From: a virus
Virus genome (UHGV): UHGV-1361589
Length of the DNA stretch: 47,408 nucleotides
Strand: one strand, 5' to 3'
The notes under the pieces were generated by a model. That model was not told the DNA's origin. It made no database searches and saw nothing but the letters and a program-made list of their open reading frames with translations. Position 1 is the first letter of the stretch. Every line of letters begins with the position of its first letter. Positions 5,514 to 25,599 of this stretch are shown piece by piece. Both the position numbers and the translations under genes were made by a program.

Positions 5514-6560
5514 GTGATGCAAATGGGTATTCTTAATATTAAACCAGCAGAGCGTTCAGGTTCTCGCATAGTGATTGGCATTTCAGGTCAGTCTGGTAGC
5601 GGCAAGACGCTTACGGCACTAAAGATGGCGCGAGGTATGGTCGATAAACCAGAAGAAATTGGATTTCTTGACTCTGAAAATGGTCGTGGCAGGCTTTATT
5701 CTGGAGAGCTTGACGGTCCATTTATGCACGCTGATTTGTATGCGCCATTTAGTCCAGCTCGTTACCGCCAGGCTATCGAGGAATTTCAGGAGGCAGGCGT
5801 TAAGGTTCTGGTTATTGATTCAGGATCGCACGAATGGGAAGGTGAAGGAGGATGCAATGATATTGCAGAGCAACCACTATTGCAGGGTAAGGCAATGGCA
5901 GACTGGAAGCGAGCCAAGTCTGAACATAAAAAATTCATGAGCGCTCTTTTGCAGAGCAATATGCATATCATCGTGTGTTTGCGAGCCAGAGAGAAAACGA
6001 GTTTTAAAAACCCCAAGAAACCTGAATCCCTCGGATTGCATGCTGTATGCGAAAAAGATTTTATGTTTGAAATGACAGTAAGCATGATGATGTATGATAA
6101 TGGAAAAATTCAGGAATTTACCAAGCTACCAGAAGAGTTGCGTCCAATCTTCTTTGATTCAGGCCGTGATAGTGTACACGAAGGATACTTAGGCGAGGCT
6201 CATGGGAGAGGTTTAATTAAATGGGTGGATTCAGGTGTCAAGGTCGACGAAGAGTTTGAGCACTGGCGCTCTAAACTTCAAATGACGGCGTCGAAAGGCG
6301 TTGCTGCGTTAACTGCCGAGGCAGTTAACTTGCCTGATTCAGTGAAAGCAAAAATTCGTGCAATCTGGCCTACATTGAAGGCATCAGCAGAAGAGTATGA
6401 GCGCATTGAATCATTCATTAATGATGAATCTCCAGCAGCTGTAACTATCACGCCGCAGGACGATTTCAACCCGGCAAAACTCCAGAAAGCAGATGCGCAC
6501 GCGTCATCTTCAAACGAAGAGAAGCCATCAACATCTCAACAGAACATCGAAAACTTTTAA
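5514..6560 (+). CDS. Sak4-like RecA-fold ATPase (AAA_24; ssDNA annealing/recombination)
   Basis: 348 aa. Walker A GISGQSGSGKT. Its position between an exonuclease and SSB is the typical phage recombination-module order. Confidence 0.6.
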   Translation: MMQMGILNIKPAERSGSRIVIGISGQSGSGKTLTALKMARGMVDKPEEIGFLDSENGRGRLYSGELDGPFMHADLYAPFSPARYRQAIEEFQEAGVKVLVIDSGSHEWEGEGGCNDIAEQPLLQGKAMADWKRAKSEHKKFMSALLQSNMHIIVCLRAREKTSFKNPKKPESLGLHAVCEKDFMFEMTVSMMMYDNGKIQEFTKLPEELRPIFFDSGRDSVHEGYLGEAHGRGLIKWVDSGVKVDEEFEHWRSKLQMTASKGVAALTAEAVNLPDSVKAKIRAIWPTLKASAEEYERIESFINDESPAAVTITPQDDFNPAKLQKADAHASSSNEEKPSTSQQNIENF

Positions 6561-18096: not shown

Positions 18097-18151
18097 GTCT
18101 AAATCCTGTTTTCATAATGACGTAATTATACCATTGACAGGGAGTGCAAGA

Positions 18152-18180
18152 CTGACGTAGATTGAAAGCATAAGGTGATT
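18152..18180 (+). promoter_or_regulatory. sigma70-like promoter (cTGACG-17-GTGATT) with TAGATTGA element
   Basis: CTGACGTAGATTGA at 18152-18165, upstream of the plus-strand cassette inside the tail module. Confidence 0.4.
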
Positions 18181-18193
18181 GAGGGTTTGACAT

Positions 18194-18322
18194 ATGAACG
18201 AGACTGATGCTGATTTGAGATTTTACATCGACCTTTACATCGATCAGGGTTACACCTATGAGGAGGCCCGCGTAAAGGCGATTTTGTTGCTGGCTAAGAT
18301 TGGCGTAGTGGTGGAGGATTAA
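18194..18322 (+). CDS. hypothetical small protein (tail-module moron cassette)
   Basis: 42 aa (MNETDADLRFYIDLYIDQGYTYEEARVKAILLLAKIGVVVED), translated by hand. Confidence 0.3.
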   Translation: MNETDADLRFYIDLYIDQGYTYEEARVKAILLLAKIGVVVED

Positions 18323-18324
18323 AA

Positions 18325-18477
18325 ATGCCAGTTAACAAAGACGACGAAGATGTGATATCTGCATATGCAGGTCAGCGCATCGACATAAACTATGCGATAG
18401 CAATTCACCTCAGGCGCGCTGAGTTTATTGCTAATCTGATTTTGTGGGGCATCAAGAACAAGACGAGGAAGGCGTGA
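18325..18477 (+). CDS. hypothetical small protein
   Basis: 50 aa (MPVNKDDEDVISAYAGQRIDINYAIAIHLRRAEF...). Confidence 0.3.
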   Translation: MPVNKDDEDVISAYAGQRIDINYAIAIHLRRAEFIANLILWGIKNKTRKA

Positions 18478-18818
18478 TGGATATTAAATCTGTATGTGAA
18501 GGTGATAGCACTCATTCCGATGGTGAATTTACATGCGTGAAAACATCATCTGGCGATGATAGCCGCTACGCCTGCGAGCAATATATCGATGCGCTTGTTA
18601 CTGTAGAGTTGGCTGCAAAACTGGCGATGATTGAAGGTCGTCAGATTAACAAATCAATCCGCGCGTGCTGGTCTGCAATCAGACCGAGAATTGATAATAA
18701 ATTAAACTGCCAGATATTTGACGGAATGGTCTCACAGTTTATGCCGCATGGCGCGCTGTGTATGCTGCGCCGACAGCTAGATAGGGCGATTAGTGAGGAA
18801 AGCGATGATGGCTCTTGA
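18477..18818 (+). CDS. hypothetical acidic protein
   Basis: 113 aa from MDIKSVCEGDSTHSDGEF.... The start overlaps the previous stop (TGATG). It is followed by a terminator. Confidence 0.4.
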   Translation: MDIKSVCEGDSTHSDGEFTCVKTSSGDDSRYACEQYIDALVTVELAAKLAMIEGRQINKSIRACWSAIRPRIDNKLNCQIFDGMVSQFMPHGALCMLRRQLDRAISEESDDGS

Positions 18819-18867
18819 CGATGATGATGCCACTTCAGGAATCCGCGCACCTTCACTGCTGAAAAAA

Positions 18868-18889
18868 TAAACCCCCTTTCGGGGGTTTT
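18868..18889. terminator. rho-independent terminator
   Basis: CCCCCTTTCGGGGG hairpin plus a T-run. Confidence 0.6.
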
Positions 18890-18891
18890 CT

Positions 18892-19647: not shown

Positions 19648-19738
19648 GTTTAGAATCCTCTGTGTTTAGCTAAACAATCGCATTATATCATGCTGACAGG
19701 CGTTGATTGGTGGTGTAGATTCGAACAAACAACACAAC

Positions 19739-19816
19739 GCACCATTAGCTCAGCAGGATAGTAGCAACGGACTTCTAATCCGTAGGTCACTGGTTCGAAT
19801 CCTGTCGCGGGAACCA
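19739..19816 (+). tRNA. tRNA-Arg(TCT)-like gene with encoded CCA; acceptor stem not complementary, possibly a pseudogene
   Basis: D-arm GCTC/AGCAGGATAG/TAGC, anticodon arm ACGGA-CTTCTAA-TCCGT (anticodon TCT), T-arm ACTGG-TTCGAAT-CCTGT, 3' end CGCGGGA-A-CCA. About 75% identical to E. coli argU when aligned by eye. Confidence 0.45.
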
Positions 19817-21737: not shown

Positions 21738-21898
21738 TAATTATTCTCCGAATGATGAACTTCCAGCATCTGTACACCTGAACCAGCGAAAACGCTATGA
21801 CGATAACGCCGATTGCTATATCCAATTTCGCCGCCTTACGTTTTTCAGGACGGAACAGCGCGGGGTGAGTATTGTTGGTTTAATTTTATCATAAAGTG

Positions 21899-21927
21899 TT
21901 GACGTAGATTGAGGGTGTCGCTATAGT
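21899..21927 (+). promoter_or_regulatory. strong sigma70-like promoter TTGACG-17-TATAGT with TAGATTGA element
   Basis: TTGACGTAGATTGA at 21899-21912 and TATAGT at 21922-21927. Drives the plus-strand ParB/mini-clamp cassette. Confidence 0.55.
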
Positions 21928-21966
21928 GATGACGTAGAAACAACAATAAATGTTAGAGGTGATGAG

Positions 21967-22269
21967 ATGAAAGAATTCAAAGGTACGCCGGGGCCGTGGC
22001 GTATGGACCGGAACAATGTACACACCGGACAAATAGCAACAATCCATCATTGCATAGGAAATGATTGGGTTGAAATCTGGTCTCCAGATTGGCCAGACAC
22101 CGAACAGAAGCAAGAAGCTAACGCACGGCTCATCGCTGCCGCTCCGGAACTGCTGGAGTCGATGACCGTAACACTTGATGAAATCGGGCATTGGTTATCA
22201 CAACAGAAACCAGACCTTAAAGAAAAGATAGTTTCCGCAATCGCCAAAGCACTCGGAGAATCCCAATGA
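21967..22269 (+). CDS. hypothetical protein
   Basis: 100 aa (MKEFKGTPGPWRMDRNNVHTGQIATIHHCIGNDW...), first gene of the cassette. Confidence 0.4.
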   Translation: MKEFKGTPGPWRMDRNNVHTGQIATIHHCIGNDWVEIWSPDWPDTEQKQEANARLIAAAPELLESMTVTLDEIGHWLSQQKPDLKEKIVSAIAKALGESQ

Positions 22270-22382
22270 TACGCCACGAAATCAGAAAAGAAGACCTGAA
22301 GGCGTGGGATAAGTTCAAAATCAAGCTGGCATTAATCGTTATCGGATTCGCCATTTCCAGCGCAATCTGTTTATCAAAGTGA
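22266..22382 (+). CDS. small membrane protein
   Basis: 38 aa (MIRHEIRKEDLKAWDKFKIKLALIVIGFAISSAICLSK), translated by hand. Confidence 0.25.
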   Translation: MIRHEIRKEDLKAWDKFKIKLALIVIGFAISSAICLSK

Positions 22383-22389
22383 GGAAAAG

Positions 22390-23205
22390 ATGACATCTCT
22401 CGGAAAAATTTACTCAGACAAAGAAACTCGCGGCGGAATCGTAGTCAACAAAGGCTATCAGGTTCCTGTCGACCAGCTTTATCTTGAGCCAGGATACAAC
22501 ATCCGCGAAGCCGATGAGCAGCACGTTGAATACTTCGCGCAGTGCTGGGAATCAGGCCAGCCAATCCCGGCGTTAACTGTTATTCCTGATGCCGATGGAA
22601 AGTGCATCAAGATTCTTGATGGCCAGCATCGTTATCTTGGCGCACTGCGTGCCATTGAGCGCGGCGTGCCAATTGCGCGCATTGAGTGCAAAGACTTCAC
22701 CGGCGATGAGGCGGATAAAATCGCCTTCATGGTGTCTTCCAGTCAGGGAAAGCAGCTTGACCCGCTTGAGCGTGCAAAGGCTTATGTGCGCCTGAAAGGC
22801 TTCGGATGGACGAATGAAGAAATCGCCAAAAAGGTAGGCCGCTCAGTTTCTGATGTACAAATGCACCTGTCACTTGGTGACGTACCTGATGCCATCAAGC
22901 AGCGCATCAATGCAGGACAAATCAGCTATGCCAACGCCGTTGCAGTCGCACGTGAGCATGGCGATGATGCAGTTAACGTTATTGATGCTGCCGTTGAGGA
23001 AGCGAAAGCGCAGGGCAAGGATAAGGTGACGGCTAAAACGCTCAAGGCCAAAAAAGTTAAGCCGATTGACCGCCTGATTCAGTTGCTGAAAGAAGCAGAT
23101 CATATGGTTGTCGCTGAGGGTCATGTCGCACAGGAGACCGAGGAGTTTTTGCGTCTTCCTTCCGCTGAGTTGAGTGAAGTGCTGGCGATTCTGGAGAAGC
23201 TGTGA
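22390..23205 (+). CDS. ParB/Srx-superfamily protein with DGQHR motif and C-terminal HTH (DndB-like/ParB-like nuclease domain)
   Basis: 271 aa. ILDGQHRYLGALRA motif in the N-terminal ParB-like domain; HTH-like TNEEIAKKVGRSVSDVQMHL. Confidence 0.55.
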   Translation: MTSLGKIYSDKETRGGIVVNKGYQVPVDQLYLEPGYNIREADEQHVEYFAQCWESGQPIPALTVIPDADGKCIKILDGQHRYLGALRAIERGVPIARIECKDFTGDEADKIAFMVSSSQGKQLDPLERAKAYVRLKGFGWTNEEIAKKVGRSVSDVQMHLSLGDVPDAIKQRINAGQISYANAVAVAREHGDDAVNVIDAAVEEAKAQGKDKVTAKTLKAKKVKPIDRLIQLLKEADHMVVAEGHVAQETEEFLRLPSAELSEVLAILEKL

Positions 23206-23399
23206 TGATTACAATTGGCACTGTTGCAAAAAACATAAAAGAAGGCGATCACATCCTAATGCGAGACGGCGTGGCTCGCCAGGTGGAGAAAATTCACTAT
23301 CAGGAGGACATAATCGCATTTGAAATGAAGCGTTACGAAGAAAAAACAAGGCATTTCTTATTTTATGATGAATGCGCAAATGTGGTGGAGAGTTGGTAA
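23202..23399 (+). CDS. hypothetical protein
   Basis: 65 aa, overlapping start/stop codons with its neighbours. Confidence 0.35.
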   Translation: MMITIGTVAKNIKEGDHILMRDGVARQVEKIHYQEDIIAFEMKRYEEKTRHFLFYDECANVVESW

Positions 23400-23572
23400 T
23401 GAACCACGAACAGTTCATAGAGAAAAACCTGCGCGAAAAACTACCAGGTATCGACAACGCGGCCATAGAGGCCGCAATTACCCACTACAGGCGCAACCAG
23501 AGTGAAAAGAAGGGCAAGATTTTCGATGAATGCCTGAAGGTTGCAAAACAACACATGATAAAGGTGAAGTGA
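23399..23572 (+). CDS. hypothetical protein
   Basis: 57 aa from MNHEQFIEKNLREKLPGIDNAAIEAAITHYRRNQ.... Confidence 0.3.
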   Translation: MNHEQFIEKNLREKLPGIDNAAIEAAITHYRRNQSEKKGKIFDECLKVAKQHMIKVK

Positions 23573-24108
23573 TGAAATTAAAAATCAGCAAGTTAATTCT
23601 TGAAGGCGCGTTGATGTTCCAGGCCAAACAGGATGTTCGCTATTACCTGAATGGCATTTGCTTTATGCCTGATGGTCGCGTTGCCGCTACTGACAGTCAT
23701 CGCGCCATGATTGCCAGTAAGCATGAAAATAAATTGAAAGATAACGTTATCGTTTCTGTCAGCAAGTCGCCAACCAAGCGTTATGCGTATGCGCTCCTGG
23801 ACACTGAAACAAACATTGTCACCTACCATGACGAACATGAGGCGATGGTTGGTGCGGGAATTTGTTCTGAAATTGATGGCAATTACCCCGATATTGATCG
23901 CGTCATCCCGAAGCAGACCGCGCCAGCAGAACAGATTGGCTTCAATGCCAAATATCTTGCCGATGTTGAGAAACTGGCGAAGTTGTTTAACCCGAAATTT
24001 GAAGCGGTGCTATTTGAGTTGAATGGCAACACCAGCGCCGCCGTCGCAAACATCAGTGCGCCTACTGGCGAGACTGCAAAAGTTATCGTTATGCCAATGA
24101 GGATTTAG
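23572..24108 (+). CDS. truncated DnaN-like protein (beta sliding clamp domain II + abridged domain III; mini-clamp)
   Basis: 178 aa. [31 protein letters not shown] aligns with E. coli DnaN [48 protein letters not shown] aligns with DGRFPDYRRVLPKNP. The C-terminus [10 protein letters not shown] aligns with AAYVVMPMRL. DnaN domain I is absent. An AGGTGA RBS lies upstream. Confidence 0.6.
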   Translation: [178 protein letters not shown]

Positions 24109-24362
24109 TGATGAAAAAGAATGGCGTTTTTACTCAGAATGATGGCTCAAAAGTTGCCCGTCTTGGCGATGGTTACGTCGGCATTAAATTTGGCTCTTGC
24201 CATGGTGAAAAGTTAATAGCTATTGCGAATAGCACAAATCGAGGGGTGCCGGGAGATATAATTGATGAGGCTGATGAGGCTGAAATTTATATCACATTCA
24301 AAGACAACGCCTCAATTCAGCGGCTGATTGATGGCCTTGTTAGTCTTCGTGACCATAAGTGA
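24108..24362 (+). CDS. hypothetical protein
   Basis: 84 aa. ATG overlaps the stop of the DnaN-like gene (TGATG). Confidence 0.35.
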   Translation: MMKKNGVFTQNDGSKVARLGDGYVGIKFGSCHGEKLIAIANSTNRGVPGDIIDEADEAEIYITFKDNASIQRLIDGLVSLRDHK

Positions 24363-24372
24363 GGATTTAGTT

Positions 24373-24738
24373 ATGAACGAACAAGCACAAAAAATTCTGG
24401 AAGACCTGCTGAAGAAGGCCAGTAACGGCATTGATTCTGCGGTTTCATTTAGTCAGGCGCAGATTCCTGATGTCATTCAGCAACTTTTGATGTGGAACGC
24501 TGTATCTTCAGCAGGCATTCAAATAATTTGCTTAATAGCTATTATTGCATGTGTTTATCTAATGATTTTTGCATGGAATGAAGGTGATGATGGTGAAGCT
24601 GTTCTTGCTGTATTGTTCTTTACTGGCGTTGGCTCAATCGCCTGCATAGTTGTAATCTTTAACAATTTCGACTGGCTTAAAATCTTGCTTGCTCCAAAGC
24701 TCTACCTTATCGAATACGCGGCATCTCTAGTCAAGTAG
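24373..24738 (+). CDS. membrane protein (2 predicted TM helices)
   Basis: 121 aa from MNEQAQKILEDLLKK.... Two long hydrophobic stretches (IQIICLIAIIACVYLMIFAW, VLAVLFFTGVGSIACIVVIF). Last gene of the cassette. Confidence 0.4.
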   Translation: MNEQAQKILEDLLKKASNGIDSAVSFSQAQIPDVIQQLLMWNAVSSAGIQIICLIAIIACVYLMIFAWNEGDDGEAVLAVLFFTGVGSIACIVVIFNNFDWLKILLAPKLYLIEYAASLVK

Positions 24739-24740
24739 AG

Positions 24741-24766
24741 AAAAGCCCCTTTCGGGGCTTTTCTTT
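24741..24766. terminator. rho-independent terminator (bidirectional)
   Basis: AAAAGCCCCTTTCGGGGCTTTTCTTTT. Confidence 0.65.
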
Positions 24767-24768
24767 TA

Positions 24769-25599
24769 TCACGGAAGATAAGCGTCATCCTCAAACCATG
24801 AAACATAAGCATTGATATTTTGCGCCGCAGTATCCAGGGATGTGATGCGTAACAGATAGGTAGTATTAGGCGCCATGATGACCTGTTCACCGAGTTTTGC
24901 CTGTGAATTACCCTGCCCCTGGTTTGATGCGTTCCCTTCACTATACGTCGCAGCCACCGTCAGCTGGCCGATACTTGTAACCGTAGAGCCAGTAAGAAGC
25001 TGTGCCGTTGCAGTATGCGGCGCTATGTCATTTGGGTTATTAATCTCCGCAGCAGTGCCGCCAGTGGCTACAGCTCCACGGTAAATTGACGCTATGACAC
25101 CTTTACCGGTATATCCGATTATGCGCTGGTTAAACACAACCTGTTTTGAGCCGGTAATAAAAATGCTGTCAAGGTTAGCCCCGCCAGCGACGTCAGTCAC
25201 GCGACGTGATGCGGTGAATAACTTCCCCTGCTTGTTAGCAAGCTCCGAGTAGGGCTGCGCGACAACCTGACTTGATGGAACTGAGGTGTCAGCTCGCCAC
25301 ACCAGGACTTTCAGAGATGCAACGCCAGCAGGAAGCTGTGACTTGATCACCTTTAGTCGTAGCGCAACGCCATAATAATTATTATTGTTAACGTCGATCC
25401 AGAAATCACCAGATGCGAACGGGGATACCATTACTGAGATAGAGCCACTGGTTAATGGTGCGTGGCCGCCTGAAGAGTTTAATGGCACAATCTGCACCTG
25501 CAATGCAGTCCAGTCTGCTGACATGGTTTCACTAAGCGAAACCTCTCCGTCAGCCGGAGTTGTGTTTATTTCGTACCTGACAGCCATGATAACCCCCAA
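24769..25599 (-). CDS. putative structural protein (beta-rich, Thr/Ser/Gly-rich; head decoration or fibre-like)
   Basis: 276 aa, downstream of the major capsid gene with a terminator after it. No recognisable motif. Confidence 0.3.
   Translation of the reverse strand: MGVIMAVRYEINTTPADGEVSLSETMSADWTALQVQIVPLNSSGGHAPLTSGSISVMVSPFASGDFWIDVNNNNYYGVALRLKVIKSQLPAGVASLKVLVWRADTSVPSSQVVAQPYSELANKQGKLFTASRRVTDVAGGANLDSIFITGSKQVVFNQRIIGYTGKGVIASIYRGAVATGGTAAEINNPNDIAPHTATAQLLTGSTVTSIGQLTVAATYSEGNASNQGQGNSQAKLGEQVIMAPNTTYLLRITSLDTAAQNINAYVSWFEDDAYLP

Follow-up and report, generated by a model that had tools for sequence, protein, structure and literature searches.

A plus-strand accessory cassette in the structural gene block of a Webervirus-type phage, predicted to encode an orphan ParB-like protein and a β-clamp fragment with a conserved pocket

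T1-like phages replicate with the host polymerase. The β* form of the Escherichia coli β clamp (DnaN) comprises domains II-III and is produced from an internal start, the late transcription of phage T4 is gp45-dependent, clamp inhibitors are encoded by Staphylococcus phages, and the clamp pocket is an antibiotic target. The C protein of phage Mu enlists β for late transcription (PMC12867686). The pocket which accepts clamp-binding motifs consists of 18 listed residues (PMC11139829). In the ParB family, KorB of plasmid RK2 is a CTP-dependent clamp and a global repressor. The orphan ParB class is frequent on mobile elements and in phages, has the canonical domain order, and often has a missing or divergent Box III; sequence does not predict which nucleotide (CTP, ATP or GTP) these proteins prefer (PMC12704722). 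HerB (YfjB), a ParB-like clamp which is encoded in the leading region of the F plasmid and expressed early, binds the chromosome and reprograms host transcription (PMC13370423). Here, a locus of the virus genome UHGV-1361589 (47,408 nucleotides; this whole stretch is referred to as the window) is described, in which a cassette of eight plus-strand genes carries a ParB-like protein together with a fragment of the β clamp, the mini-clamp. The cassette is tentatively regarded, at somewhat less than an even chance, as a DNA-metabolism accessory operon which is driven by the host RNA polymerase, is situated at a recombination hot spot and encodes an orphan ParB acting as a regulator or clamp and a pocket fragment acting as a decoy or adaptor. 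The anatomy of the locus, its conservation, the family assignments and the retention of the pocket stand on much firmer ground than the proposals made below on timing, ligands, DNA targets and physiological effect.

With megablast, the window was placed among the Klebsiella Webervirus-type Drexlerviridae, and a 24-kb query was about 93% identical to phages DP01 and KlebP_265 across more than 80% of its length. The cassette region as the query matched 199 phage records with the maximum coverage of 78%, therefore both the locus and its variability are visible in public genomes. The initial annotation had described eight plus-strand genes inserted between the minus-strand neck and capsid genes and bounded by a TTGACG-17-TATAGT promoter and a strong terminator, and each of these elements was recovered. 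The eight open reading frames (ORFs) occupy 21967-24738. According to the annotation of close relatives, they are flanked on one side by minus-strand neck/tail-completion genes and on the other side by a 276-aa gene with no known function, a 64-aa gene and the major capsid gene, all on the minus strand. Every cassette ORF is preceded by a Shine-Dalgarno (SD)-like sequence, and most of the genes overlap or abut the next one through ATGA, GTGA, TAATG or TGATG junctions, a pattern that fits a single operon. On the basis of PHROG alignments, the lengths of relatives and the SD positions, three starts were shifted from those of the longest ORFs: g5 to 23399, the mini-clamp to 23572 and g8 to 24373. 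The GC content of the cassette is 0.42-0.49 compared with 0.50-0.56 of the flanking genes. The terminator (24737-24766, strand not assigned) lies between the cassette and the convergent 276-aa gene. Folding of 24730-24780 resulted in a 13-bp hairpin with -20.9 kcal/mol (z = -4.6; none of 200 shuffles was as stable), followed by UUUUAU. With an A-tract on its 5' side and a T-tract on its 3' side, the terminator is probably bidirectional. It was absent from the output of a simple terminator scan, and no known RNA families were found in the cassette. The cassette is a separate transcription unit and not a group of structural genes.

The sigma-70-type promoter is located on the plus strand at 21899-21927 and agrees with the consensus at 10 of 12 positions; its -35 hexamer is embedded in the 11-mer TGACGTAGATT. 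The conserved leader (21929-21966, plus strand) contains a second copy of the 11-mer, TGACGTAGA, at about +1, a CA-rich 5' untranslated region and the SD sequence AGAGGTGATGAG. The two 11-mer copies are 30 bp apart. The -35 and -10 hexamers and a 35-nt leader were conserved in 36 of 36 related loci and the spacer between the hexamers varied, which is therefore considered the phylogenetic footprint of a functional promoter. The footprint extends to a more distant Tempevirinae-like group with diverged flanking sequence, and the leaders of the Webervirus-like and Tempevirinae-like loci are near-identical (0-3 changes) although the first gene differs. An inverted repeat around the promoter, TATTGTTG...CAACAATA, was rejected as a separate element, being the CA-rich leaders of two divergent transcripts with variable spacing.

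The 11-mer, TGAYGTAGATT, occurs at 16 sites of the window with at most one mismatch compared with 1.56 expected and a maximum of 5 in 100 shuffles, corresponding to an approximately 10-fold enrichment. Twelve of the 16 copies are intergenic and shortly upstream of non-late transcription units. Among these units are the operons of the helicase (1456) and of exonuclease VIII/recombinase/SSB (4512), this cassette (21900), four more units of small genes and, within the tail genes, a second plus-strand insert. The other four copies, each with one mismatch, are within or at the 3' end of coding sequences. The determined sites include also 18153, 19711, 30877, 34203, 40579/40596, 40938/40955 and 45409 on the minus strand. 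The copies are often paired at a distance of 17-30 bp, and the 17-bp pairs set TTGACG and TAGATT at sigma-70 spacing. The 11-mer itself can be read as a -35 hexamer joined to a -10-like one. No enrichment was detected in phage T1, which is too distant for a meaningful control. Judged by sequence, the cassette promoter is of the same class as those of the helicase and exonuclease/recombinase/SSB operons, and the cassette is probably co-expressed with these DNA-metabolism genes, the shared promoter class being the sole evidence on timing. The second plus-strand insert (18134-18890) lies within the minus-strand tail genes, between the tape-measure-side gene and the major tail gene. Its promoter, TTGACA-17-TAGATT, is of the same class, and relatives hold different small genes or an HNH endonuclease at this position.

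The ParB-like protein (22390-23205, plus strand) has 271 aa, as had been noted initially, and the assignment to the ParB/Srx superfamily was borne out by its N-terminal fold. The helix-turn-helix (HTH), which had been placed at the C-terminus, turned out to be central: HTH_ParB (Pfam PF17762) matched residues 122-203 with 43.4 bits (cut-off 22.6), and residues 225-271 form a further, small alpha-beta-beta-alpha domain. Pfam KorB was also above its cut-off (27.9 vs 22.3 bits). The motif LDGQHRYLGALRA was found at residues 76-88, with DGQHR at residues 77-81 (nt 22618-22632). In phmmer alignments with sequences of the Protein Data Bank (PDB) and in an alignment of 29 homologues, DGQHRYLGA takes the place of GERRYRAA. 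The G78 and R81 residues of the GxxR P-motif are invariant in the 29 family members, and the family alternates between DGQHR and DGHHR. Of the three GERRxR arginines only one is left, and in Box III the ENxQR(xD) motif has degenerated to SSSQGK.

Residues 41-193 of the protein aligned to Thermus Spo0J with E = 2e-11, and the further phmmer matches were Caulobacter and Myxococcus ParB, Noc and KorB. The AlphaFold2 (AF2) model had a pLDDT of 84. Its best Foldseek matches were 6t1f (ParB-parS) and 8qa9 (KorB-KorA-DNA), with E of about 1e-9 and a target-normalised TM-score (TMt) up to 0.76; Noc was matched too, and sulfiredoxin and SerK-type folds were far behind. The letters of the DGQHR motif are present as initially reported, but the DndB/DUF262 type that was derived from them did not hold: the DGQHR domain model TIGR03187 resulted in 18.4 bits over 46 aligned residues (cut-off 58.85), no matches were obtained with Pfam DndB, DUF262 and ParBc at E <= 0.1 or with the PADLOC models of Dnd, Dpd and Ssp at E <= 1, and no dnd, dpd, ssp or nuclease genes were found in the cassette or in 38 relatives. 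No DUF262-type structure was among the PDB matches, the profile of this search being biased towards ParB by four canonical ParBs in the 29-homologue alignment. A DndB/DGQHR/DUF262 identity was thus rejected despite the literal motif.

The identity of a standard partition ParB with GERRxRA, the other possibility raised beforehand, was borne out only in part. The sequence and fold are those of ParB/Noc/KorB and the GxxR fold and HTH are present, but the full GERRxRA motif and Box III are not. The scores with TIGR00180 (parB_part; 39.9 bits, cut-off 58.45) and NCBIfam Noc (34.4 bits) were below the cut-offs. The regular expression of the ParA-binding motif, [LFI]G[KR]G[LFI], had no match in the protein, no ParA is annotated in one fully annotated relative, and the window contains no match to the parS sequence TGTTTCACGTGAAACA with up to 3 mismatches. 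ParA, the ParA-binding motif and parS were thus not found, and the protein is classified, from its sequence and predicted fold, as an orphan ParB of the ParB/Noc/KorB clade and neither as a DndB/DUF262-type nor as a partition protein. Homologues with 28-50% identity were detected in unrelated phages and in 823 plasmids, the plasmid matches listed being about 34-49% identical. An early or replication-region location of the homologue was observed in Serratia phage Eta, Xanthomonas phage FoX5 and Burkholderia phage AH2. A literature search for the function of Webervirus ParB yielded nothing relevant. A second, divergent ParB-like paralogue of 238 aa was observed directly upstream of the regular ParB in IMGVR_UViG_3300045988_072291 (L012, 616-1332 of the cassette segment). 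It has GKAR in place of GQHR and scored 54.8 bits with the family profile.

The mini-clamp (23572-24108, plus strand; longest ORF from 23530) has 178 aa and was confirmed as DnaN-like by sequence, AF2 and Foldseek, as the initial annotation had proposed. It aligned to residues 136-295 and, at the C-terminus, 313-366 of E. coli β, and its best matches were enterobacterial β clamps. The C-terminal end is VMPMRI compared with VMPMRL of E. coli β. The reference sequence of the latter was validated by its length, by 20 named residues (PMC11139829) and by the alignment coordinates. The score with TIGR00663 was 43.9 bits (cut-off 137.65). Among 1.84 billion cluster representatives, 145 relatives were found at E <= 1e-10, nearly all of 170-210 aa; the mini-clamp belongs to a family of its own and is not a broken gene. 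The AF2 model, built with an alignment of 61 family members, had a pLDDT of 96.6 and a pTM of 0.91. Foldseek matched it to E. coli β with E = 6e-8, probability 1.00 and a query-normalised TM-score (TMq) of 0.66 over about 258 alignment columns, and to phage proteins of about 180-210 aa in BFVD with TMq up to 0.90. From the secondary structure and the alignment, the protein is composed of DnaN domain II minus its second helix, followed by the C-terminal half of domain III, and lacks domain I as well as residues ~251-312, which include the dimer-interface residues I272/L273. As modelled, the mini-clamp is not able to form the canonical three-domain β ring, since domain I and the dimer interface are missing.

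In contrast to these losses, the peptide pocket with its subsites I and II is retained. Fourteen of its 18 residues are identical in the mini-clamp (R152, L155, T172, H175, R176, P242, R246, V247, N320, Y323, M362, P363, M364 and R365), V360I is a conservative change, and G174S, L177A and V344T differ. Among the 61 family members, the pocket columns together with D150, Y154 and G157 are the best conserved, the mean column identity being 29%. Selection acts on the pocket, whereas the parts needed for ring formation have been lost. Some database records carry the label 'DNA polymerase III beta subunit'. Another label, 'RusA-like Holliday junction resolvase' (PHROG 3007; RefSeq, e.g. NC_071151 and NC_021563), was rejected, as all the Pfam, NCBIfam, PDB and fold matches are DnaN, and it seems to be an error passed on from record to record. 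The literature search turned up no study of the clamp fragment. In one relative, IMGVR_UViG_3300045988_016905 (L027), the clamp gene is split by a frameshift or stop into ORFs of 80 and 98 aa which jointly cover the whole profile, corresponding to a pseudogene or a sequencing error.

The organization of the cassette was compared in 38 IMG/VR loci, fetched via the flanking 276-aa gene, and in annotated relatives. The capsid and head-tail genes of phage T1 are contiguous on one strand without the cassette, and tblastn of the cassette proteins gave no match to any T1 homologue. In the relatives, the distance between the flanking genes is 1.9-4.0 kb and the plan is fixed throughout: promoter and leader, slot A, g2, ParB, slot B, g5, mini-clamp and slot C. 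Slot A is occupied in the window by g1 (21967-22269, plus strand; 100 aa, unknown function, phrog_1273) and in relatives by many alleles of the g1 family or by other small genes. The following g2 (22266-22382, plus strand; 38 aa) was found in Weberviruses only, and Webervirus-like relatives have conserved it. A full-length ParB is encoded by 37 of the 38 cassettes. Slot B, here g4 (23202-23399, plus strand; 65 aa, unknown function), is empty in relatives or holds g4, small unknowns or a DNA methyltransferase; a Pfam N6/N4 or C5 DNA methyltransferase directly follows ParB in 7 of the 38. All 38 have a homologue of g5 (23399-23572, plus strand; 57 aa, longest ORF from 23372; phrog_4439, unknown function), and in the window the g5 stop overlaps the start of the mini-clamp at TGATG. 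The mini-clamp was found in 26 of the 38 cassettes. Slot C contains g7 (24108-24362, plus strand; 84 aa, unknown function), which is followed in the window by g8 (24373-24738, plus strand; 121 aa, longest ORF from 24328; phrog_3054), rare in relatives; relatives carry g7, g8 or other genes in this slot. Of the cassette products, two of which had been predicted as membrane proteins, g2 has one C-terminal hydrophobic segment and g8 has two. Altogether, the three slots hold more than 30 different small genes in relatives.

Natural deletions were found in two cultured Weberviruses. Klebsiella phage VLCpiS13a lacks g1, g2 and ParB residues 1-224, and the deletion of VLCpiS13d extends from ParB residue 25 into the 276-aa gene; the ParB gene is therefore dispensable for plaque formation. 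The locus is a conserved scaffold with exchangeable cargo which is absent from T1. The accessory status, for which a comparison with relatives had been recommended, was thereby supported, and the cassette does not represent ordinary structural genes shared by all relatives. In VLCpiS13d (L045, 5056-5247), the 276-aa gene is cut to a 63-aa remnant, so this presumed structural-module gene is dispensable too.

Thirteen annotated contexts of ParB-like and clamp genes were inspected, those of the clamp covering eleven lineages outside Drexlerviridae. The gene orders were SSB, ParB-like, clamp and helicase in Serratia phage Eta; primase, methylase, clamp and Dcm in IME_EC2; primase, dUTPase, N6-methyltransferase and clamp in C130_2; helicase, nuclease and clamp in ST22 and LIET2; clamp, ASCH-like protein, Dam and SSB in Vibrio phages R20L and X29; and helicase, clamp and DNA polymerase in Xanthomonas phage PhiXhv-5. 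Burkholderia phage AH2, which was fetched via its ParB-like gene, carries a clamp fragment and the ParB-like gene in one early operon. The clamp fragment is usually a replication-module gene, often beside methyltransferases. The suggestion of the initial annotation that the cassette acts on the replisome fits with this location in most of the other phages examined and with the conserved pocket. The ParB-like and clamp genes occur together in three independent lineages and apart in most. Opposite-strand inserts in the head-gene block were observed also in two unrelated groups: in Shigella phage EP23 (L047, 4998-6356), the clamp gene is beside that of an Nmad5 (nucleotide-modification-associated) protein, and in Burkholderia phage Bcep43 (L048, 4998-5579), it is a lone insert.

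In the preferred reading, the host RNA polymerase would transcribe a self-contained operon from the near-consensus sigma-70 promoter, antisense within the late head-tail block of the Webervirus/Tempevirinae-type Drexlerviridae. The promoter, leader, orphan ParB and g5 would constitute the backbone, and accessory genes would be swapped through the three slots by recombination. For the ParB-like protein, dimerisation via the C-terminal domain and DNA binding via the ParB-type HTH are most likely, and its GxxR nucleotide pocket probably serves as a switch; it would then resemble KorB, Noc or HerB as a regulator or clamp on DNA. Host clamp clients (Pol III alpha, delta, Hda, repair polymerases, MutS/L) or phage proteins with the motif are the most likely partners of the mini-clamp pocket, and the fragment may be a decoy or adaptor at the phage replication fork. 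No DNA polymerase is annotated in the fully annotated relative, and in a phage which, as judged from this relative, has no polymerase of its own, a decoy or adaptor role is considered the most plausible. The slot B methyltransferases give the hot spot a possible general anti-restriction flavour.

Several observations weigh against this reading. The clamp is lacking in 12 of the 38 relatives and one has the clamp without ParB, therefore the two genes need not act together; moreover, many of the 38 loci originate from a single metagenome and are not independent. With regard to early timing, nothing relevant was found in the literature searched for a Drexlerviridae transcriptome of any relative. 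Due to the loss of Box III and of two GERRxR arginines, the ParB-like protein may bind nucleotides weakly or not at all. As to its DNA target, neither parS (see above) nor a KorB operator beyond chance was detected in the window. A perfect 14-bp palindrome with parS-like outer bases, TGTTTAGCTAAACA (19663-19676), is exactly conserved in 23 Webervirus-like loci, but it was not adopted as a target since it is absent from Tempevirinae-type relatives with an 81%-identical ParB and kept in ParB-deleted phages. It is flanked by an extended -10-like sequence, TGATATAAT, and by the SD of the major tail gene on the minus strand, and is possibly the operator of a late promoter. The conservation of the mini-clamp pocket indicates constraint without naming a ligand, and the regular-expression scan of the cassette proteins for clamp-binding motifs resulted in two weak, non-terminal matches, none of them prominent.

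The cassette might instead be a recombination hot spot which gathers unrelated morons with a common promoter and no common function. The three slots with their many small genes, the methyltransferases, the second ParB paralogue and the pseudogenised clamp of relatives, the somewhat lower GC content and the independence of ParB and clamp in most of the other phage lineages examined are in agreement with such a collection. Its backbone of promoter, leader, ParB and g5, however, is invariant across two subfamilies, and the ParB-like and mini-clamp genes share one operon in Serratia phage Eta (adjacent, from SSB to helicase) and in Burkholderia phage AH2. This explanation is possible but doubtful. 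A more specific role, in which the ParB-like protein is a KorB-like global repressor of the TGAYGTAGATT promoters, including its own, and controls an early-to-late switch, is rated as unlikely. The enriched 11-mer marks non-late promoters, its pairs often overlap the -35 and the -10 or +1, two copies are present at the cassette promoter, and the motif is not enriched in T1, which is without the protein; there is also the precedent of KorB as a ParB-family CTP-dependent repressor of many RK2 promoters (PMC12704722). But the 11-mer is not palindromic, whereas ParB/KorB/Noc dimers bind inverted repeats, and it is explicable as TTGACG plus TAGATT, the copies 17 bp apart being an ordinary sigma-70 promoter. 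In addition, T1 is too distant to serve as the control, the ParB-deleted isolates are viable, and a MarR-family regulator found in relatives is just as good a candidate. The anti-defence module of the initial annotation, in which the DGQHR protein mimics or antagonises DndB/DpdB-type proteins or counters phosphorothioate, deazaguanine or restriction immunity, is distinctly unlikely. Against Dnd/Dpd, the proposal relied on a five-letter motif; profile membership in DGQHR/DndB/DUF262 is missing, the sequence and fold with the ParB-type HTH are ParB/Noc/KorB-like, and nothing in the window is tied to Dnd, Ssp or Dpd. The near-universal presence of the ParB gene in two subfamilies is unlike the typical patchy distribution of anti-defence genes. 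In favour of the module, the gene is dispensable, the hot spot is variable and the DNA methyltransferases following ParB in some relatives are a classic anti-restriction device. Fusions of ParB-fold proteins with methyltransferases are common in phages and were suggested to be anti-defence (PMC12704722).

Two explanations concern the clamp fragment itself. As a genuine sliding clamp, it would form an oligomeric ring, e.g. a tetramer of 1.5-domain protomers, and act as a processivity factor. The β-clamp fold, the position next to the DNA polymerase gene in Xanthomonas phage PhiXhv-5 and the 'beta subunit' database label are compatible with this. Since the fragment lacks domain I, one channel-lining helix and, together with the I272/L273 interface, the first half of domain III, the conservation is centred on the peptide pocket and not on the rest of the sequence, and most of the host phages, including this one, encode no polymerase, a ring of this kind is judged very unlikely. 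Slightly more improbable still is a two-piece substitute of the sliding clamp, in which a nucleoside triphosphate (NTP)-gated ParB-like dimer on phage DNA and the pocket fragment as a docking site, possibly bridged by g5, would attract or lead away host Pol III or enzymes of repair and recombination, with no need for the host clamp loader; if true, host enzymes would be drawn to or from phage DNA independently of that loader. In a weaker version, the fragment alone would be a soluble sponge for host clamp clients. Finally, it is scarcely credible that the ParB-like protein is the partition protein of a plasmid-prophage state. The database labels 'ParB-like partition protein' speak for it, but ParA, the ParA-binding motif and parS were not found, the gene is deleted in viable isolates, and no integrase is annotated in the one fully annotated relative, which does contain a MarR-family regulator and many unannotated proteins and may thus encode an immunity repressor. 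The preferred reading of a host-driven accessory operon is retained at the tentative level given in the beginning.

All perfect palindromes of the window were enumerated. A 17-bp palindrome within the ParB gene (22605-22621) was dismissed, being within chance expectation. The longest palindrome apart from the terminators is the perfect 10-2-10 palindrome GTTAACTGCCGAGGCAGTTAAC at 6308-6329, within the 5514-6560 ORF of the recombination/SSB operon. A tRNA remnant was detected on the plus strand at 19746-19805 with the Rfam tRNA model (36.3 bits, model positions 8-63 only); ARAGORN found no tRNA in the whole window. At this position, relatives hold 1-3 intact tRNA genes (Ser, Arg, Met, Gly).

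Both genes have been annotated, partly wrongly, in hundreds of phage genomes, and phage orphan ParBs have been surveyed; the pocket-only clamp design is a new form of a familiar protein. A widespread phage protein of about 180 aa, which of the β clamp retains only the pocket for its clients, is an easily testable candidate for how phages tap or jam the replisome hub. The ParB-like protein is a compact lytic-phage example of the growing class of orphan ParB NTP switches, with natural deletion variants at hand. The 'partition protein' and 'RusA-like' labels of RefSeq and PHROG are misleading, and the former has been taken for a lysogeny marker in phage-therapy candidates.

In comparison with the described systems, the layout of an N-terminal ParB fold, an HTH and C-terminal dimerisation is common to the phage protein and KorB, for which Pfam KorB scored above the cut-off and 8qa9 was among the best Foldseek matches. 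Both proteins reside on a mobile element without a role in the segregation of their own element. In contrast to KorB, the phage has no KorB operator and no identified KorA-like partner, Box II is DGQHR instead of the GERR type, Box III is degenerate, and the element is lytic. HerB resembles the phage protein as an orphan ParB-like protein with an NTP pocket and an HTH, expressed from its own promoter on an incoming mobile element, these features being predicted on the phage side. SSB, methylase and anti-restriction genes are nearby in both cases, and the homologue of Serratia phage Eta also follows SSB. As a close homologue HerB was rejected, since BLASTP gave E = 0.087 and 20% identity over the HTH only; HerB has 652 aa with two extra domains and binds CTPγS, whereas the phage protein has 271 aa. 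Chromosomal ParB/Spo0J and Noc provided the best sequence (1vz0, 2e-11; 6t1f; 7ol9) and fold matches with the same domain order, but the phage protein is without ParA, the ParA-binding motif and parS or the Noc-binding site (NBS), and the GERRxR arginines are down to one. DndB, DGQHR and DUF262 (GmrSD N-terminal) proteins belong to the same ParB/Srx superfamily and have a similar D-G-Q-H/Q-R P-motif string; they differ from the phage protein, which has a ParB-type HTH, no nuclease or Dnd context and no profile similarity to them.

The mini-clamp has the fold and the pocket (14/18) in common with DnaN, but its length is 178 compared with 366 aa and the canonical dimer interface is missing. It is shorter than β* by half a domain. 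Mu C, T4 gp45 and the Staphylococcus inhibitors are precedents for targeting the interface between the clamp and its clients; they use or block the host ring, whereas here the phage encodes a copy of the pocket.

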